Shown: positions 1,841-32,905 of the stretch, one piece after another
Layout: every line of letters starts with the position of its first letter
Position numbering within the stretch: position 1 is the stretch's first letter
DNA from: an uncultured Bacilli bacterium
GTDB taxonomy: Bacteria > Bacillota_I > Bacilli_A > RF39 > UBA660
Assembly: GCA_947630415.1 (NCBI GenBank)
Contig: CANRHM010000003.1
Coordinates: 1-32,905 of the forward strand
Direction of reading: 5' to 3'
Length of the DNA stretch: 32,905 nt
The notes under the pieces: model-generated
Seen by the model: the letters and a program-made list of their open reading frames with translations, nothing else
Databases searched by the model: none
What the model was told of the DNA's origin: nothing
Program-made: the position numbers and the translations under genes

Positions 1841-2129
1841 AATTGTTTAATAAATCTAAGTTTTGTACATCTTCATTAATTTTATCAATGGTATCTTTAG
1901 AACAAGTTGCAAGGAAATGCATTATCGTATTGGGATTATCGTAGAAAAGATCAACTTTATAAAGAAGGATTTCTTTTAAATTGTGTATTCCTACCGATAA
2001 GAAATGATTAAGTATTTCTTCCACGCGTTCTTGATTAGTCGATAACTCCAAGATATCTCGTTCGGTAAGTTCTTCTTTTAAAGTCTCTAAATCTTCTTCT
2101 GATAAATTATAGTTTAGAAGGTATTTCAT
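1839..2129 (-). CDS. Hypothetical 96-aa acidic helical protein
   Basis: ATGA overlap with the upstream gene; GGAGG RBS inside the end of that gene. Confidence 0.75.
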   Translation of the reverse strand: MKYLLNYNLSEEDLETLKEELTERDILELSTNQERVEEILNHFLSVGIHNLKEILLYKVDLFYDNPNTIMHFLATCSKDTIDKINEDVQNLDLLNN

Positions 2130-3955
2130 TTATGGGATCCTCCTTCTGTAGGAGCATAAATAGGTCCTACACATCCTTTTAAAGTCTGATACTCATTTTG
2201 TGTTACATAACTACCTTTGGTAATGCAATACATGAGTTTATCTTCTCCAGGAGCCATCTTATTTAAAGCACTATAGTATCTTAAGACCTTTGGTCTAGAG
2301 ATCGTTAGAGTACCAAACTTATAAACATAATCATTTCCTGGAACACGATAATTTTCTTCTAAATATTGAATTTCAGCATCTTTAAAGATTTCTTCGGAAT
2401 AAGTACCATTTTCATCTTCTTGAATTATACTATCGTACGTTGAAGCAAGTGGAGCCATATCTTCCATCGACATAAACGAAGTAAGGCGAATCGCTTCCAA
2501 ATACTTGTGTCCATAGCCAAAGTGGCGAACAAAGAAGTCCTTGCTAAGATTTCCTTCACGTGAATCTGAGAAAAGTTTTCGATAATAATCTACTTCCGAT
2601 AACTCGCTCTTTAACTGATGAGCAAGTGTTAACGTATCTTCCGTCATAGTGACAATACTAGAGGAATGATAACGAACATACTCCGAATAAAAACGGGGCA
2701 TAGTACTAGGTCCATGAAGTAATCCCGCTTCAATTAATTTATCTAAATGAAGTGCTAAATTATGGGAAGAATAAGCGGTTACCACTGGTGGTTTGATAGG
2801 AGATCCTTCAAAGAAACCATATGATGCAAGTATTTTATAATTTTCAAGCACTTGCTTATGAGGTGTCTTTAACGTATTTAATCCTACTCCACGTTTTAGT
2901 GATACATCATAACCTTGTTCAGTTAAGAACTTCTCATTATCAATCATATCTTGATAACTAGCATCAAATAAGTAACGATAGAATATGATTTTATCTGCAC
3001 CTTTACGCGTTCTTATTACATCACCAGGATTAATCCATACTCTTGGAGAATCAAAGAAAACATCTTCAAAATGACCATCTTTCTTCATTCTTTCAATTTG
3101 CTCTTGTACCGTTTGTCTCGATCCATAAGCAAAAATAGTTAATAAAGAAGCAGGACTAAATCGATTTAAGAGAGGACCTTTACCATCATCAAAAGATTCC
3201 CTCTGTAATAAAGAAAGAACATCTTCTATTTGGTTTGTATCTAAAAGGGGTGTCATCACAGCAGCATAATCATCATATAACTTATCTACTTCCTTAGGAA
3301 GTCCATGGGCATGAAAACAATCGAGCACTTCTTCTCTACTAAGTCCCTTTACATCGCGACCTTTATCGTTATATCTTTTTATTTCAATTAAGAGACTTTT
3401 TTTATCATTAAAAGAAAGTTTTGGATCGTCCATCGCATTTAAGAAAAGTTCAAATTCATCTTGTGTAAAACGATCTGTATTATCTTTATCTTTATATTTT
3501 CCTAGTAATTGTTGATAATTATCTTGTTCCTCTACTAAAGGTCCGTCATCATCAATAACGTCTTTTCTTGCTTCCATTTTATGGGTAATAGTAGTCTCGG
3601 CTTCTTGTAACTGATGCTTAAAAGTAGCAAGGAATTTTTGTTGTTTTGAAGATAAATCCATCTTTAAAGCATTCGATAAAATACCTTCGTAGACAAGACC
3701 AATAATACGTAAATTTTCTTGGCAAGCCTTTAAATCCATCGCATCATTTAGCACATAACGTTCCAACAAGGTAGAAATAGCATTAATATCAAACAAACGC
3801 ACATTGCTTTGATCTTGTTCTAATTTTGAAAGAAATTCTAAACAAGATGCCTTATCTTCTTCTAATTCTTTGGTAATCTGATTTTCTTTTTGAGCTTGCT
3901 TTATTTTTTCATTCAATTCATTTACTTTTGCTTGTAATAAATCTTGTAAATGCAT
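2126..3955 (-). CDS. Hypothetical 609-aa protein, N-terminal coiled coil, C-terminal helical-repeat-like region
   Basis: Long ORF with an RBS-like AGGTAGGA upstream, tightly packed with neighbours; no family recognised with confidence. Confidence 0.85.
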   Translation of the reverse strand: MHLQDLLQAKVNELNEKIKQAQKENQITKELEEDKASCLEFLSKLEQDQSNVRLFDINAISTLLERYVLNDAMDLKACQENLRIIGLVYEGILSNALKMDLSSKQQKFLATFKHQLQEAETTITHKMEARKDVIDDDGPLVEEQDNYQQLLGKYKDKDNTDRFTQDEFELFLNAMDDPKLSFNDKKSLLIEIKRYNDKGRDVKGLSREEVLDCFHAHGLPKEVDKLYDDYAAVMTPLLDTNQIEDVLSLLQRESFDDGKGPLLNRFSPASLLTIFAYGSRQTVQEQIERMKKDGHFEDVFFDSPRVWINPGDVIRTRKGADKIIFYRYLFDASYQDMIDNEKFLTEQGYDVSLKRGVGLNTLKTPHKQVLENYKILASYGFFEGSPIKPPVVTAYSSHNLALHLDKLIEAGLLHGPSTMPRFYSEYVRYHSSSIVTMTEDTLTLAHQLKSELSEVDYYRKLFSDSREGNLSKDFFVRHFGYGHKYLEAIRLTSFMSMEDMAPLASTYDSIIQEDENGTYSEEIFKDAEIQYLEENYRVPGNDYVYKFGTLTISRPKVLRYYSALNKMAPGEDKLMYCITKGSYVTQNEYQTLKGCVGPIYAPTEGGSHK

Positions 3956-3963
3956 AAATCATC

Positions 3964-4164
3964 CTACCTTTCCATTAAAAGTCGATATGTTCTTAAATAG
4001 AAGGAAAAATCACTATGACGTCTTTGAAAACGACTAATAAATTCATTCAAACTAAGTCCTAAATCAAAAGCAAGATCTTCCATATCGATTTTCTTATCTT
4101 GAATTAAGGTTAAGCAATCGGAACGAATGTCTAAAAAAAGTTGATCTAATTTATCGCGTATCAT
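3964..4164 (-). CDS. Small Cro/XRE-like HTH protein
   Basis: IDMEDLAFDLGLSLNEFISRF fits an HTH pattern; AGGAGG RBS and ATGA overlap with the upstream gene. Confidence 0.55.
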   Translation of the reverse strand: MIRDKLDQLFLDIRSDCLTLIQDKKIDMEDLAFDLGLSLNEFISRFQRRHSDFSFYLRTYRLLMER

Positions 4165-5678
4165 AATTCGATTCCTCCTTTAGGAAGAAGAGCTTTATCC
4201 ATTTCTTCTCTTATAATTGGTGCTTGGCTTAAAGTAGTTGCATCTTTCTCTTTAATTTTGGTAACAAGACTATTAATTTCTCTATCGTATCGTTTTGATA
4301 TATAAATGGCTTGATCAAAGATTTCTCCCGCTGGTGCAAAGGTAAGAATAACAAGGGAATCATTTCCTGCTTTCGTATAACAGCAAGCCATATTAGAAGA
4401 TCTTACCACGTACATATCATAATCAGTTTTTAGTTTCTTTTGTACTTTCGTATGTCTATTAGACATTTCAGGATCTTCTATACCTCTTTCCAAGCGATCC
4501 ATTAATAATTGAATTCGTTTCTTTTCACTAGCATTAAAATGAGTTAAATCGAAACAAGGACTATTCTTATCTAGTAAGAAGAAAATCTTAGATGCGGTAG
4601 GATGCGCCTCTTCCTGTTTACTAGCATTGTATTCATCAACAGAGTCTTTGACTTCATGGAGAAGACCTTCCGTCTCATCTAAATAAAGACTAGCTTCTTC
4701 ATAAACATCTTGATTTTGCGTTTCATTAGCAAAGACCGTTTGAAGTTCCTCTTTATACATTGATAACTCAAGTAATTGTACCATCAAGCGTTCTTCGACA
4801 TAAGAGAAACTAGAAGTATCAATTTCTCCCGTATCATCAGTCATCTTCATCTCTTTTTCACATGCAGCTAAGTTTTTTGCTAATTCTATTTCTTTTTCGC
4901 TTTTTCCTTGGTAAAGATAACTATATTGACTAAGGTAATCATTAATTTCCTTACTTAAAGCAGTATACCTTTCCCGAAGTGGTGCAAATAAATCTTGCTT
5001 TGGTTCTTCAGTAGGTACTACTTCTTCATGAGGGACCTCCACGATAACAGGAGCAGGAACCTCTTGAGATTCCATCACTGTAATAGGTTCTACCTCTACT
5101 TTTTTTGGTTCTACAGCCTGAACCACCGGTTCAACTGTTTTAGTTTTTGATGATTCAGGAGATGTTTTTTTCTTATGATTTGCTTTTACACAACTATCCC
5201 AAGCTTCTTTAGTTAAAACTGCAAGTTGATCTTCCTCTTCTAAACCACTTTGATCCAAAAGCGTTAAAAAATAATCAAAATCGTATTGTTCACGTCTTAG
5301 AACAGCACCAACTTTTTCTAATTCAGCTTCAACTCTATGAACCTGATCTTCTCCCTTACTTTCCAATACTACTCTTTTCTTAAAATAGTCATTTTTGGTA
5401 ATGGAATCAAGAGCCATTTGTACTTGTTCTGCATCCATGGCATCATGTGCTAAAAAGAAATCAATCACCCGAATGGAATTATCCAAATTGGGATCTAGTA
5501 AAAGAAGTCCTTCTCTGGCCTTTAAAACATTTTGGGCAGTTGGTGCATCTTCTAGTACCGTCATTTGTGAAAGTTTTCTTAACCGATCATTTAGTTGTGC
5601 TTTTTCTTGTTCTAGTTTTTTCCCTACACCTTGAACATAGGAATCAAACTTATTAATTGAAGTTACCTCTACTTGCAT
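4161..5678 (-). CDS. Hypothetical 505-aa coiled-coil protein with Pro/Glu/Val linker and possible C-terminal RelE/ParE-like fold
   Basis: Long ORF, GGGGTGA RBS, own promoter; low-complexity linker at aa ~170-228; C-terminal helix plus three short strands (MYVVR, ACCYTK, SLVILTF). Confidence 0.8.
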   Translation of the reverse strand: MQVEVTSINKFDSYVQGVGKKLEQEKAQLNDRLRKLSQMTVLEDAPTAQNVLKAREGLLLLDPNLDNSIRVIDFFLAHDAMDAEQVQMALDSITKNDYFKKRVVLESKGEDQVHRVEAELEKVGAVLRREQYDFDYFLTLLDQSGLEEEDQLAVLTKEAWDSCVKANHKKKTSPESSKTKTVEPVVQAVEPKKVEVEPITVMESQEVPAPVIVEVPHEEVVPTEEPKQDLFAPLRERYTALSKEINDYLSQYSYLYQGKSEKEIELAKNLAACEKEMKMTDDTGEIDTSSFSYVEERLMVQLLELSMYKEELQTVFANETQNQDVYEEASLYLDETEGLLHEVKDSVDEYNASKQEEAHPTASKIFFLLDKNSPCFDLTHFNASEKKRIQLLMDRLERGIEDPEMSNRHTKVQKKLKTDYDMYVVRSSNMACCYTKAGNDSLVILTFAPAGEIFDQAIYISKRYDREINSLVTKIKEKDATTLSQAPIIREEMDKALLPKGGIEL

Positions 5679-5721
5679 ACGTTCACCCCATCTATCTTAT
5701 AGTCTCTATTATTCTAAGGTA

Positions 5722-5750
5722 ATTATAGCAAAAAAAAGAGGCTTCGACAA
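5722..5750 (-). promoter_or_regulatory. Sigma-A promoter for the 505/66/609/96-aa operon
   Basis: Minus strand TTGTCG-17 nt-TATAAT with extended TG. Confidence 0.65.
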
Positions 5751-5774
5751 TCACTTTTATGGATTTTTATTACG

Positions 5775-5806
5775 AAAAAAAGAAGTCCCTTTCACAAGAA
5801 CTTCTT
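5775..5806 (-). terminator. Intrinsic terminator of the AAA+/vWA operon
   Basis: Minus strand AAGAAGTTCTT-GTGA-AAGGGACTTCTT followed by a U-run, directly at the stop of the 319-aa gene. Confidence 0.65.
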
Positions 5807-6764
5807 ATTCCTTTATAAGTTGTTTATAATTGTCTTTAAATTGGGCTTCTGCCTTTTTAACATCGATCTTATCTTCTAAGTTTAAGTAACTAATAACACT
5901 TCTAAAGTCACTGGCCAAATCGTGTCCCATAATTCCCATACGATCTGGTTGATCAAAGAAAAGATCATTTTTGTTTAAATGAAGAGCACGTCTTATAAAT
6001 CTTTCTGAGCAAGTACAACCATAATTATCGCCCCAATAGGATCTTTGCACATCCATTGTTTCTAGAACACGGAACAAAATACGGCGACAAAACTCAACGC
6101 GACAAGAAGTCTTGTAAAGAGCTTCTAGATTGAGAGCGGAAGATTGTCTTTTGATGCCCACGGCAATTTGAATGAGTTCATTTCCTTCTTCGGATAACTC
6201 AAACGCATTAATTCCTACTTTGTAACCAGACTTTTCAAGTGCTTTTACCACATTCGTTAAAATAATCGCACGATTAAGCACTTGACTTTTTGAAGTCATG
6301 TGATTATAAGAAAGACTCGTATGAATCTGTACAAACTTAGGTCGTTTCACTCTTCTTCGGTCTTCATAACACAAAGGATCACCTCTAATATAAGAAGGAA
6401 CAATTAAGAATCCTCCTTGAAGGGATTTTACCGTTTCATAGGTATGAAGATTATGAACATTATCTTTCGATAAGTTTTTTTGAAGTGTTAAAAACTCCTG
6501 ATACCCTGGATCAACTGGTCCAATTAAATCTTCAAGTGCTTTTTTATAAGGTTTCCCTGCAAAATCGTAATCATTGGTTTCACTAGCAAGCTTATGAAAC
6601 ACACTTTCATTTATGGAAGGATTACTTTTTAAGTAACGATACAAGGAATCGAGCGAACTAAAGCGTGCTAAATAAAGACGATAACGTTCCCCATTTACTT
6701 CCAACACTTGAGGTGGAAACATACACTCTGGATAGTTAATATAATTCTGTGGATATTCTGCCAT
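5805..6764 (-). CDS. Degenerate vWA-like partner of MoxR/CobS-type ATPase
   Basis: FVQIHTSLSYNH...RAIILTNVVKALEKSGYKVGINA resembles vWA beta1/alpha1/beta2 with a degenerate MIDAS; directly downstream of the AAA+ gene. Confidence 0.55.
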   Translation of the reverse strand: MAEYPQNYINYPECMFPPQVLEVNGERYRLYLARFSSLDSLYRYLKSNPSINESVFHKLASETNDYDFAGKPYKKALEDLIGPVDPGYQEFLTLQKNLSKDNVHNLHTYETVKSLQGGFLIVPSYIRGDPLCYEDRRRVKRPKFVQIHTSLSYNHMTSKSQVLNRAIILTNVVKALEKSGYKVGINAFELSEEGNELIQIAVGIKRQSSALNLEALYKTSCRVEFCRRILFRVLETMDVQRSYWGDNYGCTCSERFIRRALHLNKNDLFFDQPDRMGIMGHDLASDFRSVISYLNLEDKIDVKKAEAQFKDNYKQLIKE

Positions 6765-6778
6765 AAGAATGCACTTCC

Positions 6779-9040
6779 TTATTTTTCTTTTCCTTTTTCA
6801 CAGTAGTAAATAAATCTTTTTGCTAGTTGCTTTTCTGAAACACGGCTTAGTGGTGCAGAACTTTGTTCAAGCGTTATTTGACCGGAAATATCGTAATAAC
6901 TTCTAAACTGTCTTGATAAATAATCAAGGTAATCTGGTCCTTTTGTTTGAATGAATTTTTGGCGAAGCACTTCATCCGCGGTTTTACTATTGTGTTCAAT
7001 GTACCTAGCGATGGCTTCGGCATCTCTTGTAGAAGCAATTCCAGAAACGGAAGATTTACCCTGTCTTCTAGCCCACGAATCACAAGCCTTTCTAAAGTTA
7101 GCAAAAATATGATACCAGTTGGTATGTTCTCCAAAGAGACGTTCTTCCACGCCGTTATCGTATTTAAATTCAATAGGCGTCATACGTTCCAAAACACTTT
7201 CATCGAGCTTTCCACGAGATGAGAATTCTTCACTTTCTCCTTCTCCATTTGTATTACCTGCTGCCATCATTCTAAAGTTAGGACTCATCGGTACAATCAT
7301 ATCTTCACCAAATGTAACATAAACCTTTTTGTTAGGATTTTGAATAACTTCAAGTGAACTTGAATAGATGCCATTCAAAGAAACAATCGAATCCGCATCT
7401 CCATTATCAAGTTCATCGTAACCTAAGAGTTTTCCATACGTAGTTGCCACAAAGGTTGGGGTTGCTCTATATCTTCCTTGTGGATCATTATAACCAATAA
7501 TACTATAATTACCGGTAATCTTTCCATTATCGATATAATCAAGTCCTAAAAGAGAAGCAACTTGACGCATCAAATGTGTTTTTCCACATCCAGAAGGTCC
7601 CCATAAGTAAACCCAATCGCCTTCCATTACACAACGAATGACTTCATCCGTTAACTCATGGAACAATTCTCCTTTTTCAAATCTTTCCTTCTTCAAAGCC
7701 ATTATTTTATCAAAACGTTTATTAAAAGAAATGGATTCATCAAAAGCTGGAAGAATTCCTTTATTCGTACTTTCTACTGGAATGGTTACATTAGGTCCCA
7801 TCGGAACAATTAAACGACTATTTCCAGATACATAGGTTCCTTTTTCTTTAGATGTTACTTTCTCCGGAGCACTAGTTACGACTACAGTTTGTTTTTGTAA
7901 AGACTCAATTTGAGCCATCATTTCTTTGATTTGTTTTTCTTGGTTCACTGATCCCAATAATTTTTGTAGTTTTTCATCGTTACTAAGATAATCTTTTAAG
8001 GTATCTAAGCTACTGTTAGCAGCATCCTGTAGTCTTATAAGTTCCGAAGTCGTAGTCGATTGTAGGGTACTAGCAGCAAGACGAAGATCACGCATTTTAA
8101 CAGATGCTTCTTCTAATAATTTATTAAATACTTGATCGCTACTGGATTTGAAAGATTCTTGAAGAGATAACAAATATTGATCTAATTTCTCAAGCATTTC
8201 TTTTCGGGCTTCACCTACTTTTTGATTCATTGAGCGAACGGCACCATCGGCATAATTACTGATGGTTTTTTTACCCAACTCCACACAGCCATCAATGATC
8301 TTTTTACCTTCCGTTGTAAGGGCGTCAATTCGTTCTTGGAAGGTATCGATGTTTTGATCCATCGCTTCTAATTTTTCAATCAAACCTTGTGCTTTTTCAG
8401 CTTCAGCTGAAATATTGGCTAAGGTCTTTTCTCCAACCGGATAGATACCTACTCGTTTTTTTACTTCGGTCAACCTTTTATCGTGATAGACAGAAACCGA
8501 TCCTAATTCCGTTTCAAGTCCATTCATAAAAGCAATAAGTTCATTTTTTAGCACAGTTGGATTAATACAGTAAGGACTTACTTCACAAGCATAAGACACA
8601 ATCTCTTGGTATTGTGATTTTAATGTCTCATTACTTAAAATAAGCCTTACAATTTGAATATAATCAAGACGATTATTAAACAAGGCATAAAGTTTCTTAT
8701 CAAGAACACCTTCACTAATCTCTCTAAAATCGTAAGCAATAAAGTTATTGATAATCATTTCTTTAATTGCACTATATTCCTTGGTTTCCATTCCTTGTGG
8801 AAGTAAGAAATGAACGGTATCAAGAACGCGATCAAACGTATTTGAAAAATCAGCATCATCCTCATAATTTTCTTGTAATAGTCCCAATACGACACGTTCT
8901 AAAAATTCATACTCAAAAAAGTCGTTATTGCGTTCTTTATTTTTAATACCCTGTACATAAGTAACTAAAGCTCTTTGCACCCCATAAGAGACATCCGATC
9001 TATTAATTGCTCGAATTAAATTTTTATATTGTTCTTCCAT
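6779..9040 (-). CDS. MoxR/CobS/CbbQ-clade AAA+ ATPase with long N-terminal helical and coiled-coil extension
   Basis: Walker A GPSGCGKT, Walker B LLGYDELD, sensor-1 NFRMMAAGNT, arginine-finger region LDESVLER; start moved to ATG 9040 (AAGGGTGA RBS). Confidence 0.85.
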   Translation of the reverse strand: MEEQYKNLIRAINRSDVSYGVQRALVTYVQGIKNKERNNDFFEYEFLERVVLGLLQENYEDDADFSNTFDRVLDTVHFLLPQGMETKEYSAIKEMIINNFIAYDFREISEGVLDKKLYALFNNRLDYIQIVRLILSNETLKSQYQEIVSYACEVSPYCINPTVLKNELIAFMNGLETELGSVSVYHDKRLTEVKKRVGIYPVGEKTLANISAEAEKAQGLIEKLEAMDQNIDTFQERIDALTTEGKKIIDGCVELGKKTISNYADGAVRSMNQKVGEARKEMLEKLDQYLLSLQESFKSSSDQVFNKLLEEASVKMRDLRLAASTLQSTTTSELIRLQDAANSSLDTLKDYLSNDEKLQKLLGSVNQEKQIKEMMAQIESLQKQTVVVTSAPEKVTSKEKGTYVSGNSRLIVPMGPNVTIPVESTNKGILPAFDESISFNKRFDKIMALKKERFEKGELFHELTDEVIRCVMEGDWVYLWGPSGCGKTHLMRQVASLLGLDYIDNGKITGNYSIIGYNDPQGRYRATPTFVATTYGKLLGYDELDNGDADSIVSLNGIYSSSLEVIQNPNKKVYVTFGEDMIVPMSPNFRMMAAGNTNGEGESEEFSSRGKLDESVLERMTPIEFKYDNGVEERLFGEHTNWYHIFANFRKACDSWARRQGKSSVSGIASTRDAEAIARYIEHNSKTADEVLRQKFIQTKGPDYLDYLSRQFRSYYDISGQITLEQSSAPLSRVSEKQLAKRFIYYCEKGKEK

Positions 9041-9041
9041 G

Positions 9042-10358
9042 TTATTTATCACCCTTTACTAATTTTTTCATTTTGGCTTTATTTAAAAAATCGCTAGCAT
9101 CAATGACTTCTTTTGAATCGACGGATACTAAAGATGCTTGTTTCAATCCCTCAAAACCTTCCTTACTTTCTCCTAAATGATAAAAGTAACGATTTTTAAG
9201 TTTTCCTTCATAGTAACCATTTCGTTTTAAATCGCTATCTAAAAAGTGCGTCTCTAATAAATAGAGATGATCTTTCTCCGATAAAGAAACGCCAATTACA
9301 CTTTTATCGACTTCATCTAAAACAACTTCTAAAGAATTCATCCCGGTTGTTCGATTTCTTCTATAGATTCTAGCATAATGTTCCCGTTCTAAAAAATGTT
9401 CTTTACTAGATGCTAAATAAAGATTATGAATTGTAATCATCTTTTCATCTTGGGTTACTTCATCAATCGAAGTAGCAAGTCCAAAAGAAGCCTTCCAAGG
9501 AAGTAAAAACCAAGAGAAGTTTGGCGTTTGGTATACGAAGTCAGGTAATATAGGCTTATCTACTTTTTCCAAATCGTGATTTTCATAACGAATAATGACC
9601 TCGTCTTTCTTAACTTCATACGTCGATTTAATCATGTCTTTTGTAACAAAATAATGAGCGATTGAAGTCATATTCAAAAAAGGAAAACTGGTCTTAACTT
9701 CGATAGCATCGTATTTAAATTCCAAATCCAAGGTAACTGGTGATAACGCATTCGTATTCCCCAGTTCAAAGTGATAAAAAGAATCACTTAATTTCGTCGC
9801 TAATAAAGGAACAAAATGTTCTATTCCATCAACTTTAGCCGACAATAAATACTGTTCTTGATAGCCACGAAAGATAGAAGAAAATTGCACCACTTGATCG
9901 GTCACTTGATATAACTTTTCTACGTGATAAAAGACGATATCCATCAAAGGAGAAAACTCATCTTCCAAAAAAAGAAGGCTTCCGTCATATCCTTTTTTTC
10001 CTTCAAAAAAGTGATATATCTTATCTTTTTCTCCAAGCAAACCACTATCAAGTACCTGTTTAGTGTGTTCATCGATGTCAATTCCTTGATATAAATGGAA
10101 AGGATCGGTAAGACTATTTTCATAAACCTGATTCTTTTCATCGTGATAAACCTCGACTACTTTCTTTACATACTCATTAAAGTATTCATCTTTAGCCGTA
10201 TAAGAAAGTTGTTTCCCTCCATCATACGTAATGGAAAGAACAGGAACAACTAAGGCTTTATTGGACTTATCTTGAATAACATCCCATAACTTTATAGACT
10301 CTAAGTTACGAATGTTATAAATAGCAATCAATTCTTCGTCCATACTTTTTAACTGCAT
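9042..10358 (-). CDS. Hypothetical ~438-aa protein, first gene of the AAA+ operon
   Basis: Long ORF; likely start ATG 10358 after a G-rich RBS; stop 1 nt before the AAA+ start; no family recognised. Confidence 0.8.
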   Translation of the reverse strand: MQLKSMDEELIAIYNIRNLESIKLWDVIQDKSNKALVVPVLSITYDGGKQLSYTAKDEYFNEYVKKVVEVYHDEKNQVYENSLTDPFHLYQGIDIDEHTKQVLDSGLLGEKDKIYHFFEGKKGYDGSLLFLEDEFSPLMDIVFYHVEKLYQVTDQVVQFSSIFRGYQEQYLLSAKVDGIEHFVPLLATKLSDSFYHFELGNTNALSPVTLDLEFKYDAIEVKTSFPFLNMTSIAHYFVTKDMIKSTYEVKKDEVIIRYENHDLEKVDKPILPDFVYQTPNFSWFLLPWKASFGLATSIDEVTQDEKMITIHNLYLASSKEHFLEREHYARIYRRNRTTGMNSLEVVLDEVDKSVIGVSLSEKDHLYLLETHFLDSDLKRNGYYEGKLKNRYFYHLGESKEGFEGLKQASLVSVDSKEVIDASDFLNKAKMKKLVKGDK

Positions 10359-10478
10359 CTTACCTTCCCCCCACATCTAGTTTTCTATCCTATCATAAAA
10401 GCACCTTTATTTCAAGAAAAATCAGTATCCAAAAGCATATTTTAAAAACCTAACTAATAGGATAAAACAGGTGATTGT

Positions 10479-11816
10479 ATGAATAAAGAATCTAAATTAT
10501 TTCTTCTACTCTTTATAGGACTTTTATCTTCTGTTTTAATAGGCTCCGTTATTTTAAGAAATAGGAGTCCTAAATTAAATACTCAAAAGGAACTTACCGC
10601 GACCGTCATGGCTTTTTCGGAAAACACTGTAACCGTCAAAGATGAAAATGATGTAGTTTATACGTTTGGCATATTAAAACAAGATAACATCGAAGTGGGA
10701 AGTACCATCAAGCTCTCCTATGAAGGAAACTTTATCGATGGTGTAATTGCTTCTTCTTACGAAGTAATTCCTGTTGAAAGTACTCCTAATACAGGTCTAT
10801 TCAAAGACTATTATAAGTTGGCCCAGGAAAAACTAGATACCCTATCACTAGACCAAAAAATAGGTCAATTATTCCTTGCTAGGTACGAAGATGTAACTAG
10901 TGAAACTCTAAAAACCTATCCTGTAAGTGGCTTTATCTTCTACCAAAAAGATTTTACCGATAAGACCAAGGAAGATGTATTAAAAAGAAGTAATGACCTA
11001 CAAAAACTAAGTACCATTCCCCTTCTATTAGGAGTCGATGAAGAAGGTGGGGATGTCGTTCGTATCAGTAGTAATCCGCTTCTAAGAAAAACACCTTTCA
11101 AGTCTCCTCAAGAACTTTATGAAGAAGGAGGATTTCCTCTCATTCAACAAGATACCATCGAAAAGAATAAACTCTTAAAAGAACTAGGTCTTAATCTAAA
11201 CCTAGCCCCTGTCGTAGATGTATCCACTGACCCCGGTGATTATATTTATAAAAGAACCATTGGACTAGGTACCAAGGACACCGAAACCTATGCCGAAACC
11301 GTGATTAAAGCAAGTAAAATGTCGTCTATTTCCTACACCTTAAAACATTTTCCAGGATATGGAAATAATCAAGATACCCATGAAGGGTCTTCTACCGATG
11401 AACGAGATTATGAAGAAATCATAGCACGAGATATTCCTCCATTTAAAGCAGGTATTAATGCAGGTGCTGAAGCCGTATTAGTAAGTCATAACATTGTAAA
11501 AAGTATTGATGGAGATAATCCTGCATCTCTATCCAAAAAAGTACATGACCTTTTACAAGACGAACTTGATTTTACAGGAGTTACCATCACAGATGATCTA
11601 GCTATGAGTGCTCTAGATGAAATAGAGGATAAAGAAATTAAAGCCATTCTTGCAGGAAACGACTTATTAATTACTTCCAACTATAAACAAAGTTTTACCA
11701 ACATCAAAGAAGCAATTAACAACAAAGAAATAACTACCTCTCAACTAGATTCCCATGTCTTAAAAGTATTAGCTTGGAAATACTACAAAGGACTCCTCTT
11801 AATCAATCAAAAATAA
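10479..11816 (+). CDS. Membrane-anchored GH3 beta-N-acetylhexosaminidase (NagZ-like)
   Basis: N-terminal TM helix; GH3 motifs VDEEGG, NLAPVVD, KHFPGYG..DTH, ITDDL. Confidence 0.85.
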   Translation: MNKESKLFLLLFIGLLSSVLIGSVILRNRSPKLNTQKELTATVMAFSENTVTVKDENDVVYTFGILKQDNIEVGSTIKLSYEGNFIDGVIASSYEVIPVESTPNTGLFKDYYKLAQEKLDTLSLDQKIGQLFLARYEDVTSETLKTYPVSGFIFYQKDFTDKTKEDVLKRSNDLQKLSTIPLLLGVDEEGGDVVRISSNPLLRKTPFKSPQELYEEGGFPLIQQDTIEKNKLLKELGLNLNLAPVVDVSTDPGDYIYKRTIGLGTKDTETYAETVIKASKMSSISYTLKHFPGYGNNQDTHEGSSTDERDYEEIIARDIPPFKAGINAGAEAVLVSHNIVKSIDGDNPASLSKKVHDLLQDELDFTGVTITDDLAMSALDEIEDKEIKAILAGNDLLITSNYKQSFTNIKEAINNKEITTSQLDSHVLKVLAWKYYKGLLLINQK

Positions 11817-11853
11817 TTGCTATTTTAATCAACATTCGTTATACTTCTAATAG

Positions 11854-12309
11854 GTGATGCAAATGAAAAAAATAATCACATTCCTACTTATAATCTTACT
11901 CTTAACAGGTTGTCAAAATAAAGATCAAGTTCGCTGGGAAAAAGAGATAAAAAATCTACAAGAAACCGCTATCCAAGATAGTTCTAAAAAAATTTATCAA
12001 GAAGACATAACCGAAGCGATTACTTATTTAAAACAACATATTCTTAATCCCATAAACAATAGAGAGGTAGCCAAAAAGATCATTTATTATAGTACTTATT
12101 TAACAGAACTAGGTAATAAAAAAGAAGAAAACAAAGATCACATCATAACAAAAGTAAGTAGTCAAATACAAGACTATATCACATCTCTTTACAAAGAAAA
12201 AACAACCAACAAGAATGCCTTAATTCTATCAAAGGGAAATGTACTAGTTAGTGAATTACTCCAAATAAAAGAGGAAGACATCTCTTCCTTCATAACAGAA
12301 AACGGATAA
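11854..12309 (+). CDS. Putative lipoprotein
   Basis: MKKIITFLLIILLLTGC lipobox; true start may be ATG 11863. Confidence 0.75.
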   Translation: MMQMKKIITFLLIILLLTGCQNKDQVRWEKEIKNLQETAIQDSSKKIYQEDITEAITYLKQHILNPINNREVAKKIIYYSTYLTELGNKKEENKDHIITKVSSQIQDYITSLYKEKTTNKNALILSKGNVLVSELLQIKEEDISSFITENG

Positions 12310-12329
12310 TACAAAACATTATCCGTTTT
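12299..12329. terminator. 12-bp perfect hairpin between convergent genes (bidirectional terminator; possibly also a DGR target hairpin)
   Basis: AAAACGGATAAT(12299-12310)-7 nt loop-ATTATCCGTTTT(12318-12329). Confidence 0.65.
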
Positions 12330-12348
12330 ATTATGTTTAATGAGAAGT

Positions 12349-14118
12349 CTATATTTCTGCATTGACTAGTACAAGGCGGAACGAGTAGGTGGCGTACGCA
12401 GAGCCAAAGGTGTAGTAGTAGTAGAACACTCCAGCACTCGAGCTATGGAGATAGTAGCCGCCGCGGATGAACCACGGGGTCGTAGAGCTTACAAAACTAT
12501 AGGTATTACTATACCATCCTTTGGTTTCTGATAAAGCATGTCCATAACATTCACCATTCTGTGTACATGAGGTAGCAAAGTTAGTTGTATATAAATCATA
12601 ATACTTGGCATCTGGTATTAGATTAGTTTCTCCACTTGTCTTAAATCCGGAACTTTTTATTGTTGGTTTACCTGTAGCATCATCTTTTAGTGCACCCATT
12701 ACATATTCAAGTGCCCCACCACTCATATCATATACTCCTGTGATGTTTCCAGTCGTAGATGCTTTTTGTCCTGCTTCAGTATTATATGTATTTGCACAAC
12801 CAGAATCTTCACTTGCATTTGCTGTTGCTCCTGCTATTCCTGTTGTATAACTTGAACAGTTATTGATATATACTTCTTCCCCGTCATTTCCATATTTTCC
12901 ATACTCACTTTGTGATAGGTAGGCTACTGCTCCCCACTCACTATTCTTACTCATATGGGTATCGATACTTCCATCACTACTAAATCCATATTCAGTAGTA
13001 TTCTTGGCCATATTTTGTGATATTGTGAATGCTGTTGAAACTCGGATTCCTCTCCATGAGGTTACACTTGGCTTTATTTGTGGCGTTAATGTGGTTAAAT
13101 CACATCTGGTATTAACATCACCACTAGTTGATGGTGTACAGTTCTGTTCTTTATTACTAGTTTCAAATTTTCCATACCAGAATCCTTCTAATTGTTCTCC
13201 TCCAAAATCAAAGGCTGGATGTACTATATAATTGTCTTCATCTGCTAAAGTTAGATCTTTACTTATAAATTTTATTTTTATTTCTCCTGGATTTAAATAT
13301 TTTGGAGAAGAGGAACTTCCACTATTTGTTCCTCCTGCTGTTTTTATATCTACATAATCATATTCGTATCTCGGTATCCATACCCACATCGTATTGATAT
13401 CTTCTATATCTATTTTTTCTCCTACTTCTGCTTCTACATAATCACTTCTTTGTTGTGTTCCTGTTTCTTTTACTGTTACTGCATTTGCCCATTCTTGATT
13501 ACAATAATTATACCAACTCTTATCATTATTTGTACTATCTGCTTTGACCCATGAACTTTTGCCTTGATCCCATTTTACTGGAATCATTCCCTCTACTAAT
13601 TTTGGCACATTTGGTTGAGGCATATCTTCACATGATAATGCTTCATAAGTTCCTGTTATTTTTGTTTCACCTTCATTTAAAGCTAATTCTTTATTACTTA
13701 ATCCACATCTTCCATTTAAAGTTACGGTTTCAGAACTTGTTCCATTATTCTTTAATTTTAAAGTATAAGTTAACGTTGTTCCTGTGGCTAAATTTTGTAA
13801 TTCTATTTCACTTTCATTGCTACTTGCCGATAATACTTCGATGTTATTACTTCCACTATAGGTGATTATAGAATGAATATCTACTAAACTTTGATTCGTA
13901 AAAGTGACAGTTATCTCTTTTTCTTCTCCTCCTTGTAAAGTTACTTGATTGTTTTCTAAGTCGTTACTTTGAATGGGGCAAGAGACATCGCCTACGATAA
14001 TATTAAGTGCTCCTTTCTTTTCTGTACTTGTGGTAAATAATGCATAACTAAAACCGATGATCCCTGTAATCATTAATAACATTACAAAACTAAGCATCAT
14101 CTTAGTTCTATCTTTCAT
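12349..14118 (-). CDS. Secreted/surface protein with SipW/TasA-type signal peptide and C-terminal CLec (FGE-sulfatase-like) domain; putative DGR target
   Basis: N-terminus ...GIIGFSYA|LFT...NIIVGDV; CLec-fold motifs GVYDMSGGALEYV, PWFIRGG and terminal SFRLVL. Confidence 0.8.
   Translation of the reverse strand: MKDRTKMMLSFVMLLMITGIIGFSYALFTTSTEKKGALNIIVGDVSCPIQSNDLENNQVTLQGGEEKEITVTFTNQSLVDIHSIITYSGSNNIEVLSASSNESEIELQNLATGTTLTYTLKLKNNGTSSETVTLNGRCGLSNKELALNEGETKITGTYEALSCEDMPQPNVPKLVEGMIPVKWDQGKSSWVKADSTNNDKSWYNYCNQEWANAVTVKETGTQQRSDYVEAEVGEKIDIEDINTMWVWIPRYEYDYVDIKTAGGTNSGSSSSPKYLNPGEIKIKFISKDLTLADEDNYIVHPAFDFGGEQLEGFWYGKFETSNKEQNCTPSTSGDVNTRCDLTTLTPQIKPSVTSWRGIRVSTAFTISQNMAKNTTEYGFSSDGSIDTHMSKNSEWGAVAYLSQSEYGKYGNDGEEVYINNCSSYTTGIAGATANASEDSGCANTYNTEAGQKASTTGNITGVYDMSGGALEYVMGALKDDATGKPTIKSSGFKTSGETNLIPDAKYYDLYTTNFATSCTQNGECYGHALSETKGWYSNTYSFVSSTTPWFIRGGYYLHSSSAGVFYYYYTFGSAYATYSFRLVLVNAEI
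12367..12495 (-). other. Putative DGR variable region (VR)
   Basis: 67/120 G+C over 12371-12490 (hand count) in an AT-rich gene; non-scaffold codons nearly all NNC/NNT; ends TCGTTCCGCCTTGTA (SFRLV). Confidence 0.75.
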
Positions 14119-14146
14119 TCAAATCACATCCTTATTATCTATTTCT

Positions 14147-14174
14147 ATTATAAAACTACCCCCCCCCATGTCAA
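14147..14174 (-). promoter_or_regulatory. Consensus sigma-A promoter with G9 homopolymer in the spacer (putative phase-variable promoter)
   Basis: Minus strand TTGACA(14174-14169)-T-GGGGGGGGG-TAGTTT-TATAAT(14152-14147); 16-nt spacer. Confidence 0.85.
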
Positions 14175-14196
14175 CTTTTTGTTAATTTCTTCTCAT

Positions 14197-14218
14197 AAAA
14201 AAAGAGGAGTATTCCTCT
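14197..14218 (-). terminator. Intrinsic terminator after the ftsEX-M23 operon
   Basis: Minus strand AGAGGA-ATAC-TCCTCT then a T-run, at the M23 gene stop. Confidence 0.65.
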
Positions 14219-15416
14219 AACGTGTGTACCAAGTCGTATAGGTTTTACTTGGAAAATTAATTACACTCTCGGCTCCTTTAAATCCACTGTTGTAACTTCG
14301 ATTTACAAAACTTACATAATTATCCCACTTACCACAATTGCTATCACTGAAGAGTCTACATGGCCATACCTCTAGATGTAAGTGAACTCCAAAGGCATAC
14401 CCCGTATCGCCCATGTAGCCTACAATCGTATTGGAATTAACTTGCATTCCAACATAGATATTGGAAGCATATCTACTAAGATGGGCATATAACGCTGAAT
14501 AATACGTTCCATTTATGGTACGATACTGAATGACTAAACATAAAGCTCCATTATTATCGTGGTAAATGTTCGTAATCGTTCCATTACCAATCGAATACAA
14601 AGCCGTATTTTTTCCTGTAGAACTACCAATATCGATTCCTCTATGGAGACTTCCCCAACGGTAGCCTATAAAACTAGTAACATATCCCGTTTTTATTGGT
14701 CTTAAGAAAACGGCATTACTACTAGTTACTGCACAATCTCTTCCAATTACTTGGTTACGAGAAGTACATCCTTGTTTCTTATAGTAATCGACTAATAACT
14801 TCTTATCACGCACTTGTTCTTCAAGGCTTGGTGATAATCCTTCAATTTCAGCAATCGAAACATTTAACTTTTTAATTTCTTCGTTTAAGCTAGCGACTTT
14901 CTTTTCATATTCTTCTTGCTTATTTTTAAGTTCCGTTTTCCGGTCTTCATTCTTTTTAATTAAATCATTTAATTCATTAATAACATTATCGTTATAGGCT
15001 GTAATTTGTTCTACTACCGAATAACGATAGATAAAATCCGTAATGGTATCTCCTCCAAAGACATATTCCATGTAGAGATTTTCTCCTTGACTCATTTGCA
15101 AATAAGCAAGAAGAGATTTGGTTTCTTCTTGTTTTTCTTCGATTTCTTTATTGGATTCAACAATTTCTTCTTGCAACTCCACCGACTCTTCACTCATCTT
15201 TTGCATACTATTTTTTAATGATTGAATCGTCGAGTTGTTGGTATCGACCTGATTTTCTTTATCATCGATCAAGGCTTGATTTTTTCGTAATTCTTCTTGC
15301 GCTTCTGCTAACTCATCGAGGTAGTCTCCATAAGTCACTTCTTCTGCTAAAACAGACATTGGAAATGAAGCAAAGAGAATAGCAATAACAAAAAGGGAAA
15401 TAACTTTCTTTTTCAT
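14217..15416 (-). CDS. Secreted coiled-coil M23 peptidoglycan peptidase (PcsB/CwlO/EnvC-like architecture, FtsEX partner)
   Basis: Signal peptide, long coiled coil, M23 zinc motifs HRGID and HLH, YAHL; TAATG overlap with ftsX. Confidence 0.9.
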   Translation of the reverse strand: MKKKVISLFVIAILFASFPMSVLAEEVTYGDYLDELAEAQEELRKNQALIDDKENQVDTNNSTIQSLKNSMQKMSEESVELQEEIVESNKEIEEKQEETKSLLAYLQMSQGENLYMEYVFGGDTITDFIYRYSVVEQITAYNDNVINELNDLIKKNEDRKTELKNKQEEYEKKVASLNEEIKKLNVSIAEIEGLSPSLEEQVRDKKLLVDYYKKQGCTSRNQVIGRDCAVTSSNAVFLRPIKTGYVTSFIGYRWGSLHRGIDIGSSTGKNTALYSIGNGTITNIYHDNNGALCLVIQYRTINGTYYSALYAHLSRYASNIYVGMQVNSNTIVGYMGDTGYAFGVHLHLEVWPCRLFSDSNCGKWDNYVSFVNRSYNSGFKGAESVINFPSKTYTTWYTR

Positions 15417-26176: not shown

Positions 26177-27187
26177 TTAACTCTCTTTTTTTTGTACTTT
26201 TTTACTAATATCTTTTAATGTTTCTAAATACGCTTTTTCCACAGGACTAATTTCTTTTACTTGATACTTTTTATATTCACTTTTTGCTTTTTGTATTGCT
26301 TCTTCATGGCTTATAGCACCAGCGCCTATTAATTTACTTTCCCCTGTTGCAGATAAAATAGAATCTAGTTCTCTTATATAATCTTCCATATACATTTGTT
26401 TATGCCTAATTGCTTGAATTTCAGCAAAATCAAAATATCCTGATACCAAATTATTTAAAACTTTTAATTCTTCTTCTGTTAAATAATTTTTAGCAATAAC
26501 TACATCACTCATAACAGGAATATCCCCTCTGAAGGTTTTAAGTCCCATAAACGGTTTTTCGGAATCTGCTCTTTCATAAATTAATTCGGAGGCAGTATGA
26601 CCATGAGTAGCAAAATGAAGTTTATTTTGGACCATTTTAAAAAACTCAATCGACTTTTCATCTTTAGGATCATAATCAACTGCTGTTGCATATAAATCTA
26701 AAACTTGTCGATAAAGAACTTTTTCAGAAGATCGGATATCCTTTATTCTAGCAAGTAATTCTTTCCAATAATTGCCACCAGCATTGCCTTTAAGACGTTC
26801 ATCATCTAATGTGAATCCTTTTATCATATATTCTTTTAATCTTTCAGTAGCCCACTTTCTAAAATTAGTAGCTATTTTAGATTTAATACGATATCCTAAA
26901 GAAATGATCATATCTAAATTATAATATTTGACCTTTCTTTCTACATTTCTACTTCCTTCGCTTTGAACTGTCAAGAATTCCTTGACAGTTGAATTTTCAT
27001 CTAATTCTTGCTCATTAAATATATTTTTTATATGTAAACTTATATTTTGTTTGGTTGTTTTATATAATTCAGCCATTTGCTGTTGAGATAACCAAACAGT
27101 TTCATTCTCTAGTTTTACATCGATTTTAGTCTCTCCATCCTCTGATTGATAAATAATAATATTGTTAGAAATTTCATTATTATACAT
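26177..27187 (-). CDS. RhuM-family protein
   Basis: ETVWLSQQQMAELY, YNLDMIISLGYR, FRKWAT..LKEYMIKGF.LDDERL, IRSSEK, AKNYL motifs. Confidence 0.9.
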   Translation of the reverse strand: MYNNEISNNIIIYQSEDGETKIDVKLENETVWLSQQQMAELYKTTKQNISLHIKNIFNEQELDENSTVKEFLTVQSEGSRNVERKVKYYNLDMIISLGYRIKSKIATNFRKWATERLKEYMIKGFTLDDERLKGNAGGNYWKELLARIKDIRSSEKVLYRQVLDLYATAVDYDPKDEKSIEFFKMVQNKLHFATHGHTASELIYERADSEKPFMGLKTFRGDIPVMSDVVIAKNYLTEEELKVLNNLVSGYFDFAEIQAIRHKQMYMEDYIRELDSILSATGESKLIGAGAISHEEAIQKAKSEYKKYQVKEISPVEKAYLETLKDISKKVQKKES

Positions 27188-27262
27188 ATATACATCTCCT
27201 TAAATTGAACAAAATAATTTATTAAAATAATCATACAAAATAAATGTTTTTTCCTTTACATA

Positions 27263-28287
27263 CTATTTGTTTTCTATTTGCTTTGTTTCACTTAATAATC
27301 TATCAAAATCGGATACATAGTTTCTATCTTGTATAACTTTATATTTTTCATATTCAATTTCTGCTTTTTCTACTGCTTGTTTATGAGAAACTGTTCCTTT
27401 TCCTTCTAATACATCATAATGAAAAACTTTTATTGCATTTTCAACTTCTTTTTTCCAATCATCCATATACATTGCAATATTTCTTTCGGCATTATTTTCG
27501 GCTATATCTAAAAATAAATTTACTAAATTATTCAAATTTTTAATTTCTTTTTCATCTAAATAATTTTTGGCAATAGTAATATCTGATTAAGTATCTTCCC
27601 ATCAGGTGATTTATCCCAATTGGTAAGACCCATATTTTCTTTTGTAGAATCAACTCTATTATAAACTATTTCCGCAGCTGTATATCCAGTTATAGCGTAA
27701 TGAAATTTATTTTGAATCGTTTTATAAAATTCCATTGCTATTTCACTATTTTTATCATAATCTATTGAACATTCTGCAAAAATATCTGTAACTTTTTGAT
27801 AAAACATTCTTTCACTTGTACGAATTAATTTAATTCTTTCAAGTAATTTTTGAAAATATTCTTGATCTTTTTTATTGGCTTTCATGAACCTTTCGTCATT
27901 TAAAGCAAATCACTGAACCATATAATCCTTAATAATTTTATTTGCCCAAGTTCTAAATTTAATTGCTTTTTTAGAATTAACTCTAAATCCTATGGAAATA
28001 ATCATATCAAGATTATAATACGGATAAACTCTTTTAACTTTACGAGTTCCTTCATTTTGAACTTGTGCAATTTTTGCACAAGTTGAATTTTCATTTAATT
28101 CTTCATCTTTATAAATATTATTAATATGTCTAATAATACCGCTTCTATCGATGCTAAATAAATTTGCTAAAGCTTCCGTATTTAACCAAACATCTTCATT
28201 TTGAAGTAATACCTCTACTTTAGTATTTCCTTCCTCATCAATATAAAATAAAATATTTCTTTCATTTCCAATTAATTTATCTTTCAC
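27263..28287 (-). pseudogene. RhuM-family pseudogene (nonsense codon plus 1-nt frameshift)
   Basis: Three track ORFs form one RhuM: in-frame TGA at 27912-27910 where the paralog has Gly (KGF), and CTT AA TCA GAT at ~27590 where one extra A restores KILKSDITIAKNYL. Confidence 0.85.
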
Positions 28288-31979: not shown

Positions 31980-32591
31980 TTATTTAGTATCAATACCTTT
32001 CATAGTATAAGTATTATAACCTTCATATTGATAACTAGCATCAATACCTTTCATATAAACTTCTCTATCATCTATTTTATCAGTCAATGCTTTTTCAATC
32101 AATAATTTGATTTCTGTATCTTTAATAGGACTTCTTTCCATTGCTAATAAATATTCTTCTTTTGAAACTTTGGACCAATCAACTACTTTGTTTAACTCTT
32201 TCTTTAAAATCAAATCTAACCATATTCTTGTGCTTCTTCCATTTCCTTCACGAAAAGGATGAGCAATGTTCATTTCTATGTATTTTTTTATAATGTCTTC
32301 CAAAGTATTTTGAGGCATTTTATCTATTTTCAATAATATGTCTTCTAAATACATAGCGGAAGCGAATCTAAAATTTCCTTTAGCTAAGTTTTCAGTCCTT
32401 ACTTTACCGGCAAATTCATAAACATCTTCAAATAAATATTTATGAATTTGAGATAAACCATTAAAAGTTCCAATTTCAAATTCATTAATCTTATTACTAT
32501 CAAATAATTCTAAAGCTTTGATTTTGGTAATTCTCTCTTCTTCCTTAGATAGTTCTATTTCATTGGTAATACCTAGTTTGTTCTGTAGCAT
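31980..32591 (-). CDS. fic: Class III Fic AMP-transferase (C-terminal autoinhibitory helix)
   Basis: Catalytic HPFREGNGRSTR; inhibitory SYQYEG ((S/T)xxxE(G/N)) near the C-terminus; start moved to ATG 32591, 5 nt after the secA stop. Confidence 0.9.
   Translation of the reverse strand: MLQNKLGITNEIELSKEEERITKIKALELFDSNKINEFEIGTFNGLSQIHKYLFEDVYEFAGKVRTENLAKGNFRFASAMYLEDILLKIDKMPQNTLEDIIKKYIEMNIAHPFREGNGRSTRIWLDLILKKELNKVVDWSKVSKEEYLLAMERSPIKDTEIKLLIEKALTDKIDDREVYMKGIDASYQYEGYNTYTMKGIDTK
31989..32055. repeat. 16-bp direct repeat, 51-bp period, inside the fic 3' end
   Basis: ATCAATACCTTTCATA at 31989-32004 and 32040-32055; encodes MKGID twice. Confidence 0.85.
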
Positions 32592-32596
32592 TAGAC

Positions 32597-32905
32597 CTAT
32601 CTCCCATGACAATTCTTATACTTCTTGCCGCTTCCACATGGACAAGGATCATTTCTTCCTACTTTTTTAACACGTTTAGGAGTTGCCTTTTTATCGCTCT
32701 TATCTTCGTTCGTAAGTTTTTCTTTAACTACCTCTTTACGTTCAATATTTTGTCTTACTTCAGCACGTACTAAGAACGTGGTAATATCTTTATCAATTCT
32801 TTGTTGCATTTGATCAAAGAGTTCAAATCCTTCCATCGTATAAGCACGCAATGGATCATCTTGTCCATAACCACGAAGACCAATACCTTCTCTTAAATGA
32901 GAAAG
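32597..32905 (-). CDS. secA: Preprotein translocase SecA, C-terminal part (5' end outside window)
   Basis: [27 protein letters not shown] and SEC-C motif [19 protein letters not shown]; frame open to the window edge. Confidence 0.95.

Follow-up and report, generated by a model that had tools for sequence, protein, structure and literature searches.

A candidate two-level surface-variation cassette in uncultured gut Bacilli: a poly-G promoter and a retroelement-type variable head in one modular adhesin gene

The window analysed here is a 32,905-nt stretch of DNA from an uncultured Bacilli bacterium (GenBank assembly GCA_947630415.1, contig CANRHM010000003.1, positions 1 to 32,905), taken at its full length. 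It holds the gene of a 589-aa protein, P0001, which we consider, on balance, to be a member of a large modular family of surface adhesins in uncultured low-GC gut Bacilli that is varied at two levels. The first level would be expression: each family gene appears to have its own conserved sigma-70-type promoter with a tract of eight to ten G (G8-G10) between the -35 and -10 hexamers, and replication slippage by plus or minus one G would alter the length of the spacer, which is 16 nt here and would become 17 nt with G10. Such a change could reset promoter strength in a heritable and reversible manner, paralog by paralog. The second level would be sequence: the last ~40 codons of the C-terminal head domain are a predicted variable region (VR) of a diversity-generating retroelement (DGR), rewritten from a template repeat (TR) elsewhere in the genome via RNA copied by an adenine-error-prone reverse transcriptase (RT), as shown in relatives and probable for P0001. 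The protein would be exported by the Sec route and its leader cut after GFSYA by a SipW-like peptidase, so that a conserved mature N-terminal strand and an immunoglobulin (Ig)-like sandwich could form a stalk, or a module for assembly, on which the variable head is displayed at the cell surface, most likely by incorporation into a filament.

More than 7884 database proteins match the family, a lower bound from 8000 scored candidates. A scan of representative genomes yielded 36 loci (L numbers below), all in metagenome-assembled genomes (MAGs) titled 'uncultured Bacilli bacterium', and phmmer found 45 further family open reading frames (ORFs) in these loci, which make 43 genes or fragments after merging of the frameshifted copies in L012 and L018. 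Single MAGs contain at least 23 (CANQIE01), nine (CANQDB01) and seven (CANRAQ01) members. The clearest two-layer example is the cassette in L017, which holds both a G9 promoter and its cognate TR. A tblastn search of P0001 against phage and plasmid collections gave no match, and these sets therefore offer no hint that the gene came from a phage or a plasmid. The two family genes in L012:182-2160 and L018:8350-10367 are each split by a frameshift into two ORFs and are either pseudogenes or assembly errors.

The cassette is a single-gene unit on the minus strand of the window. A sequence-only reading had described it as self-contained, with a terminator, a G9 promoter, the gene and a hairpin, and every one of these elements was found in its place:

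14203..14218, minus strand: intrinsic terminator of the upstream M23/PcsB-like gene (6-bp stem, 4-nt loop, T7 tail)
14147..14174, minus strand: sigma-70-type promoter, TTGACA, 16 nt, TATAAT (12 of 12 consensus matches)
14159..14167, minus strand: G9 homopolymer in the promoter spacer, candidate site of slipped-strand switching (the spacer is T, G9, TAGTTT)
14129..14133, minus strand: Shine-Dalgarno-like AAGGA, 10 nt ahead of the ATG, as read from the sequence
12349..14118, minus strand: 589-aa gene of P0001 including the stop codon (ORF)
14041..14118, minus strand: leader, aa 1-26, with basic n-region, hydrophobic helix and GFSYA; predicted cleavage before LFTT
13624..14040, minus strand: N-module, aa 27-165: first a segment of low confidence with the N-terminal strand (aa ~27-44), then an Ig-like beta-sandwich (aa ~45-160)
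12352..13611, minus strand: C-type-lectin/FGE-like variable-protein domain, aa ~170-589, from AlphaFold2 and Foldseek
12364..12498, minus strand: candidate DGR variable region, aa ~541-585 (PWFIRGG...SFRLVLV), rich in GC and in NNC codons
12299..12329, no strand assigned: hairpin with a 12-bp stem and a 7-nt loop, 19 nt past the stop codon of the P0001 gene

The head domain and its variable region

AlphaFold2, given 109 homologues, modelled P0001 at a predicted local distance difference test (pLDDT) value of 85.8. In Foldseek searches, the best match of the head in the PDB was the DGR variable protein TaqVP (5vf4; E 1.6e-8, probability 1.00), followed by formylglycine-generating enzyme (FGE) and by Mtd. 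These results bear out the C-type-lectin-type domain that had been proposed for the C-terminal part of the protein from the sequence. The head is ~420 aa long with large insertions and shares 15% sequence identity with TaqVP; Pfam gave only a weak FGE-sulfatase match, and searches with a family profile and with the relative P0049 against PDB sequences gave no match. By its fold and by the behaviour of its family, the head is a DGR variable protein.

The composition of its 3' end sets the candidate VR apart from the rest of the gene. The last ~125 nt have a GC content of 52-55%, compared with 31% for the window. Within aa 548-585, the third codon position is C in 58% of codons (9% in the remainder of the gene), and tyrosine is encoded by TAC in seven of eight codons, versus two of 27 elsewhere in P0001. 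Codons that stem from AAC-type template codons would be expected to show just such an NNC bias. Homologues conserve the scaffold PW.xRGG...AGVF...G...SFRLV, with hypervariable positions in between.

Template repeats were found in two relatives, 137-186 nt past the stop codon of the target gene (L017:11427-11557 and L022:1551-1698). The mismatches between TR and VR, counted by template base, fall at 12 of 34 A, 0 of 34 C, 3 of 33 G and 0 of 30 T in L017 (3 of 97 at non-A positions), and at 28 of 45 A, 1 of 37 C, 1 of 29 G and 1 of 37 T in L022 (3 of 103). The VRs of L020 and L027, which belong to the same MAG as L022 but to other contigs, can likewise be aligned to the TR of L022 and show a mismatch excess at A; the family is therefore genuinely targeted by a DGR, at remote sites as well. 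Diversification of P0001's own VR is suggested by its fold, its composition and its family. The sequence-only reading had proposed that a remote DGR acts on this VR; the fold and the adenine-specific TR/VR pairs of L017 and L022 support this proposal, but no such pair was found within the window itself.

For the RT, a YxDD regular expression was run over the ORFs and gave 11 candidates, ten of which were compared with Pfam; a 1192-aa ORF of L021 was left out. Nine of the ten are not RTs. The single RT among them, L016:7927-9228, is the maturase of a group II intron (TIGR04416, 344.6 bits; Rfam RF02005). Used as a phmmer query against the 771 ORFs of the window and the loci, it found only itself below E 0.01, and a six-frame scan for RT motifs gave a single match, which is not an RT.

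Poly-G promoter, leader and stalk

The promoter of the P0001 gene, with TTGACA at 14174-14169 and TATAAT at 14152-14147, is the sole sigma-70-type promoter with 12 of 12 consensus matches within 11700-14700. Its G9 tract (14167-14159) is the only G or C run of seven or more in the window. Shuffling of the window would be expected to give 0.09 runs of G8 or longer, and the observed count was reached in none of 100 shuffles.

This arrangement recurs in the family, and the same promoter element stands at another 26 sites of the related loci. In the window and the 36 loci together (476 kb), all 26 G or C runs of at least seven fall in one conserved promoter element, which consists of TTGAC., the G tract and then TA[TG]AAT. 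Twenty-two of these runs lie 40-154 nt upstream of an ORF with the leader motif G[GSTF][ST][YF]A.F, which is thus kept in 22 of the 22 genes downstream of a poly-G promoter; three of the other four are located at contig ends, and in L016 a group II intron stands between the run and its gene. The dispersed family of cassettes that had been predicted from the window is thereby confirmed, with its 43 further members. Between the window and CANQIE01, promoters are near-identical despite a protein identity of only ~41-57%. In L016:7238-9362, the intron that stands between the poly-G promoter and the family gene shows RF02005 at 7438-7655 and the maturase ORF at 7927-9228.

The tract is G9 in 20 of the 26 cases. 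Among the 20 promoters of the window type, the spacer measures 16 nt in 17 copies, 17 nt in two (L007, L029; 2 of the 19 copies in CANQIE01) and 14 nt in one (L034), and since true length variants with identical flanks thus exist, the tract fits a candidate phase switch. By its sequence, the promoter is of the classical homopolymer-spacer type. Spacers of the CANQDB01 type measure 20 nt (five copies) or 19 nt (one copy), and that of L032 is 19 nt long. These G tracts in 19-20-nt spacers, all between good hexamers, are located at L009:97, L014:966, L014:9240, L014:15061, L016:7238, L017:9276 and L032:6057.

At the protein level, P0001 starts with MKDRTK, a hydrophobic core and GFSYALFTT, followed by GALNIIVGDV, so that the leader elements recognized in the sequence-only reading (basic stretch, hydrophobic core, GFSYA/LFT, NIIVGDV) are all present. 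The AlphaFold2 model has a helix at aa 2-23 and, next to it, a segment of low confidence at aa 22-42; as a monomer it shows pLDDT values of 39-44 across aa 21-40. A beta-rich module of ~140 aa had been predicted to follow the leader, and AlphaFold2 and Foldseek bear this out (aa ~45-160). Modelled alone, the N-module reaches a pLDDT of 86.8. In Pfam it matches ASH with 29.5 bits and CBM_56 with 25.7 bits.

The N-terminus had also been likened to SipW-cleaved TasA/CalY proteins. Among the relatives of P0001, P0049 passes PF12389, the camelysin/TasA family, with 24.9 bits over aa 16-103 (cut-off 22.5), the protein at L024:2399 reaches 14.5 bits against the same profile, and P0050 and P0103 score 15.7 and 15.9 bits against TIGR04088, the SipW-cognate leader, which has a cut-off of 19. 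P0001, however, matches neither profile. We nevertheless place its leader closest to the SipW/TasA-type leaders.

The first 170 aa of P0001 match the N-termini of 233 representative protein clusters. In these clusters the helix is followed by a long conserved motif, SYA.FT...EK.G..NI.AG.L. Among 50 of these clusters that were scanned with Pfam, 25 have recognized domains of several kinds after the module. The head types overlap, as some clusters carry more than one kind; they include ALK_LTK_GRD (16), Flg_new/Flg_new_2 repeats (10), DUF285 (PARCEL; 2) and strong BspA-type LRR_5 heads (2), and 23 clusters have no Pfam match. One gene, L014:1134-2633, combines a poly-G promoter with the same N-module (60% identity over 235 aa), yet has a DUF285 head. 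The same promoter, leader and Ig-like stalk therefore bear unrelated heads, and the stalk can be regarded as a portable display module. Unrelated heads on this leader and stalk were observed in L014:966-2633 and in the clusters P0122-P0268 (DUF285/PARCEL, BspA LRR, ALK_LTK_GRD, Flg_new and F5/8 type C).

Conversely, the leader itself can be exchanged. All five distant members that were tested (L021, L027, L028, L032 and L036) have a type IV prepilin leader by TIGR02532/PF07963, and GFTLIE prepilin leaders replace the TasA-like leader at L021:9599, L027:9668, L028:966, L032:375 and L036:3533. The prepilin G|FxxxE N-methylation leader is absent from P0001 itself. Because two filament-type leaders, TasA-like and prepilin, occur on one kind of head, we favour filament display of the variable head as the most likely mode. 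Two further prepilin-type genes were noted: at the contig end L032:6057-6142 a poly-G promoter stands ahead of the start of a prepilin-type ORF, and L033:5640-7451 in CANQIE01 codes for a 603-aa prepilin-led protein outside the family.

Weighing of alternative explanations

Several observations weigh against the two-level reading. For the sequence level, repeat, family and motif searches found neither a TR nor an RT in the window, where the sequence-only reading had indeed assumed that none lies nearby, and no DGR RT was found in the 443 kb of the 36 related loci; TR and RT are also absent from the vicinity of most paralogs. Both known TRs are flanked by housekeeping genes (RecD2/YrrC; GlmS with ComEA and ComEC), and the sequence 3' of the TR is not conserved between L017 and L022. 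In CANQIE01, the VR scaffolds differ at synonymous sites, many VRs lack the GC-rich NNC character and several are AT-rich; a single TR can therefore not be the source for every paralog, and there may be relics among the VRs. In CANQDB01, only one of eight VRs fits the TR found there closely. With VRs so heterogeneous and the TR fit so poor, several TRs must exist, or many copies are relics. This could be the case for P0001 as well: the family would once have used a DGR, the copy in the window would now be static, and diversity would arise by duplication, recombination and ordinary mutation. We regard such a relic as less likely than continued diversification: the VR of the window retains an extreme codon bias (58% C at the third position at 31% GC) which mutation pressure should erode if homing had stopped long ago; moreover, its 3' end resembles the GC-rich subgroup of the CANQIE01 VRs. 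Comparable doubts concern the expression level. Seventeen of 20 window-type promoters share a single spacer length, 16 nt, and changes of tract length in L002 (AG8) and L035 (G10 replacing T) are substitutions that leave the spacer at 16 nt, which looks like selection on spacing. The tract also persists in spacers of 19-20 nt, which should not be tolerated, being too long for a normal sigma-70 promoter, and where a change of one nt could not yield a good one. A simple slippage model leaves both the dominance of one length and these long spacers unexplained. The G tract, so often G9, could instead be a fixed regulatory element, protein-binding or structural, without any slippage switch, and expression of the family would then be regulated rather than stochastic. 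To this explanation we give less credence than to a switch: homopolymers of nine or more are intrinsically unstable, length variants with identical flanks do occur (17 nt in L007 and L029, 14 nt in L034, 19 versus 20 nt within L014), and the consensus sequences of MAGs mask heterogeneity within populations.

The display of P0001 on a fibre has points against it, too, and both variation layers may operate without one. P0001 has no match to PF12389 at E values up to 1, and its aa 1-78 have none to TIGR04088 at E values up to 10. For aa 27-165, where the sequence-only reading had raised the question of a TasA-like fold, the Foldseek matches in the PDB are generic Ig-like beta-sandwiches, not specifically TasA-like. 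None of them reaches E 1e-3, and 8aur_A, the TasA fibre, ranks 29th (E 0.055, template modelling scores 0.39/0.28). No signal peptidase gene was found in the window, and the signal-peptidase motif SxSMxP has no match among the 771 ORFs of the window and the loci, in none of which a SipW-like gene was seen. Stand-alone N-module proteins among the close relatives are limited to four matches, all of them truncations rather than separate subunits because they lie on contigs of only 528-1638 nt, and many other short N-module matches run on into the head domain and are thus truncated as well. The adhesin might accordingly be anchored in the membrane or simply secreted, with the helix as an uncleaved anchor or an ordinary signal peptide and the sandwich as a spacer. 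We consider this the less probable form of display for several reasons. The motif conserved across the 233 clusters goes beyond the requirements of a cleavage site, the cut-off of PF12389 is reached by relatives, and elsewhere the same head follows a type IV prepilin leader, an indication of display on filaments. In addition, atlas matches by feature include clusters of 157-159 aa with 69-93 members, which are a lead only.

Related systems and other features of the window

The head of P0001 has the same fold as the DGR variable proteins TaqVP of Thermus aquaticus (5vf4) and Mtd of a Bordetella phage (1yu3); TvpA and LdtA are further DGR variable proteins with a C-type-lectin/FGE fold. As in TaqVP and Mtd, the VR is located at the extreme C-terminus on a scaffold of the RGG...FR type, and the TR/VR pairs of the relatives are adenine-specific. 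Unlike these proteins, the head of P0001 is fused to a leader of TasA-like or, in the family, prepilin type and to a stalk, the family has at least 23 copies in one MAG, and the two TRs found adjoin a target gene but no RT.

Homopolymer tracts in promoter spacers govern phase variation of porA and opc in Neisseria, fim in Bordetella and vlp in Mycoplasma hyorhinis. The promoter of P0001 resembles these in the position of its G tract between the -35 and -10 hexamers. The vlp genes each have their own copy of one conserved promoter, and so do the members of the P0001 family. In contrast to these systems, the P0001 gene combines the tract with a DGR-type VR, and in some lineages of the family the spacer is 19-20 nt long.

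The SipW-dependent fibres of TasA, CalY and BsaA are comparable in that the P0001 leader ends in a motif of small residues and an aromatic one, followed by a conserved N-terminal strand. P0001 differs from them in its N-domain, a generic Ig-like sandwich of ~115 aa, and in the lack of a nearby sipW gene. For the TasA-like protein BsaA of Clostridium perfringens, donor-strand exchange is reported as the mode of oligomerization, and type IV pilus genes are in part needed for its secretion (PMC11580942).

A filament-borne variable adhesin is also described for type V pili of Bacteroides, whose pilus adhesins are diversified by a DGR, as stated in the accessible text of a preprint (10.1101/2024.11.15.621889). 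As far as this text goes, the pili share with the P0001 family a DGR-mutated ligand-binding tip on a surface filament in gut bacteria and differ in phylum, filament system and export route; the terms 'phase varia', 'invertible' and 'type IV' do not occur in it, and no homopolymer promoter layer is described. A survey names a GspG-type pilin domain among the rare VR-bearing domains (PMC11661182).

Hypermutation by DGRs and phase variation by strand slippage are both familiar mechanisms; here they would be combined, as a hypermutated head behind a homopolymer-spacer promoter, in one multiplied cassette. A literature search found no paper that joins 'diversity-generating retroelement' and 'TasA', and the combined cassette is the subject of none among the titles listed that join the DGR term and 'phase variation'. 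Within the reach of these searches, the exchange of the leader between TasA-like and prepilin type, the presence of unrelated heads on one stalk and the occurrence of TRs without an adjacent RT also appear to be undescribed.

The family is large, and its hosts, uncultured gut Bacilli, are poorly known. If both mechanisms do act in one cassette with more than twenty copies per genome, a commensal could gain a vast and rapidly searchable space of surface binding along two axes, namely the choice of the heads that are expressed and the ligand that each of them binds. As a tentative extension, for which we see a smaller chance than for the two-level variation of P0001, uncultured gut Bacilli might have a genome-wide combinatorial system of surface variation. 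In it, a portable cassette with poly-G promoter, stalk and a leader that is either TasA/SipW-like or prepilin-like would take up interchangeable heads, the commonest of which would be hypermutated by a DGR in trans, with TRs beside their targets and away from the RT. With 20 or more loci per genome, each switched and mutated independently, it would amount to a bacterial analogue of the antigen-receptor diversity that a repertoire provides.

Upstream of the cassette lies the M23/PcsB-like gene (14217..15416), and the terminator at 14218-14203 ends the ftsE-ftsX-M23 operon and insulates the cassette from its read-through. On the other side, the hairpin at 12299-12329 is a bidirectional terminator common to the P0001 gene and the convergent lipoprotein gene 11854..12309. 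An Rfam scan of the whole window gave no family.

Three other regions of the window were noted. The minus-strand block 2126-10376 contains an AAA_5 ATPase (6779-9052), a DUF7192 protein (5805-6764) and ORFs that have no family match (1839-2129, 2126-3955, 4161-5678 and 9042-10376), and it might be a defence-type island. Further along, an intact RhuM-family gene (26177-27187) adjoins a second copy that is broken into three ORFs (27263-27535, 27556-27885 and 27910-28287); the two copies (26177-28287) are direct repeats of 71-79% identity with a spacing of 1094 nt. At the end of the window (31980-32905), an ORF with a Fic/DOC domain (31980-32612) adjoins a small ORF with a SEC-C motif (32597-32851).

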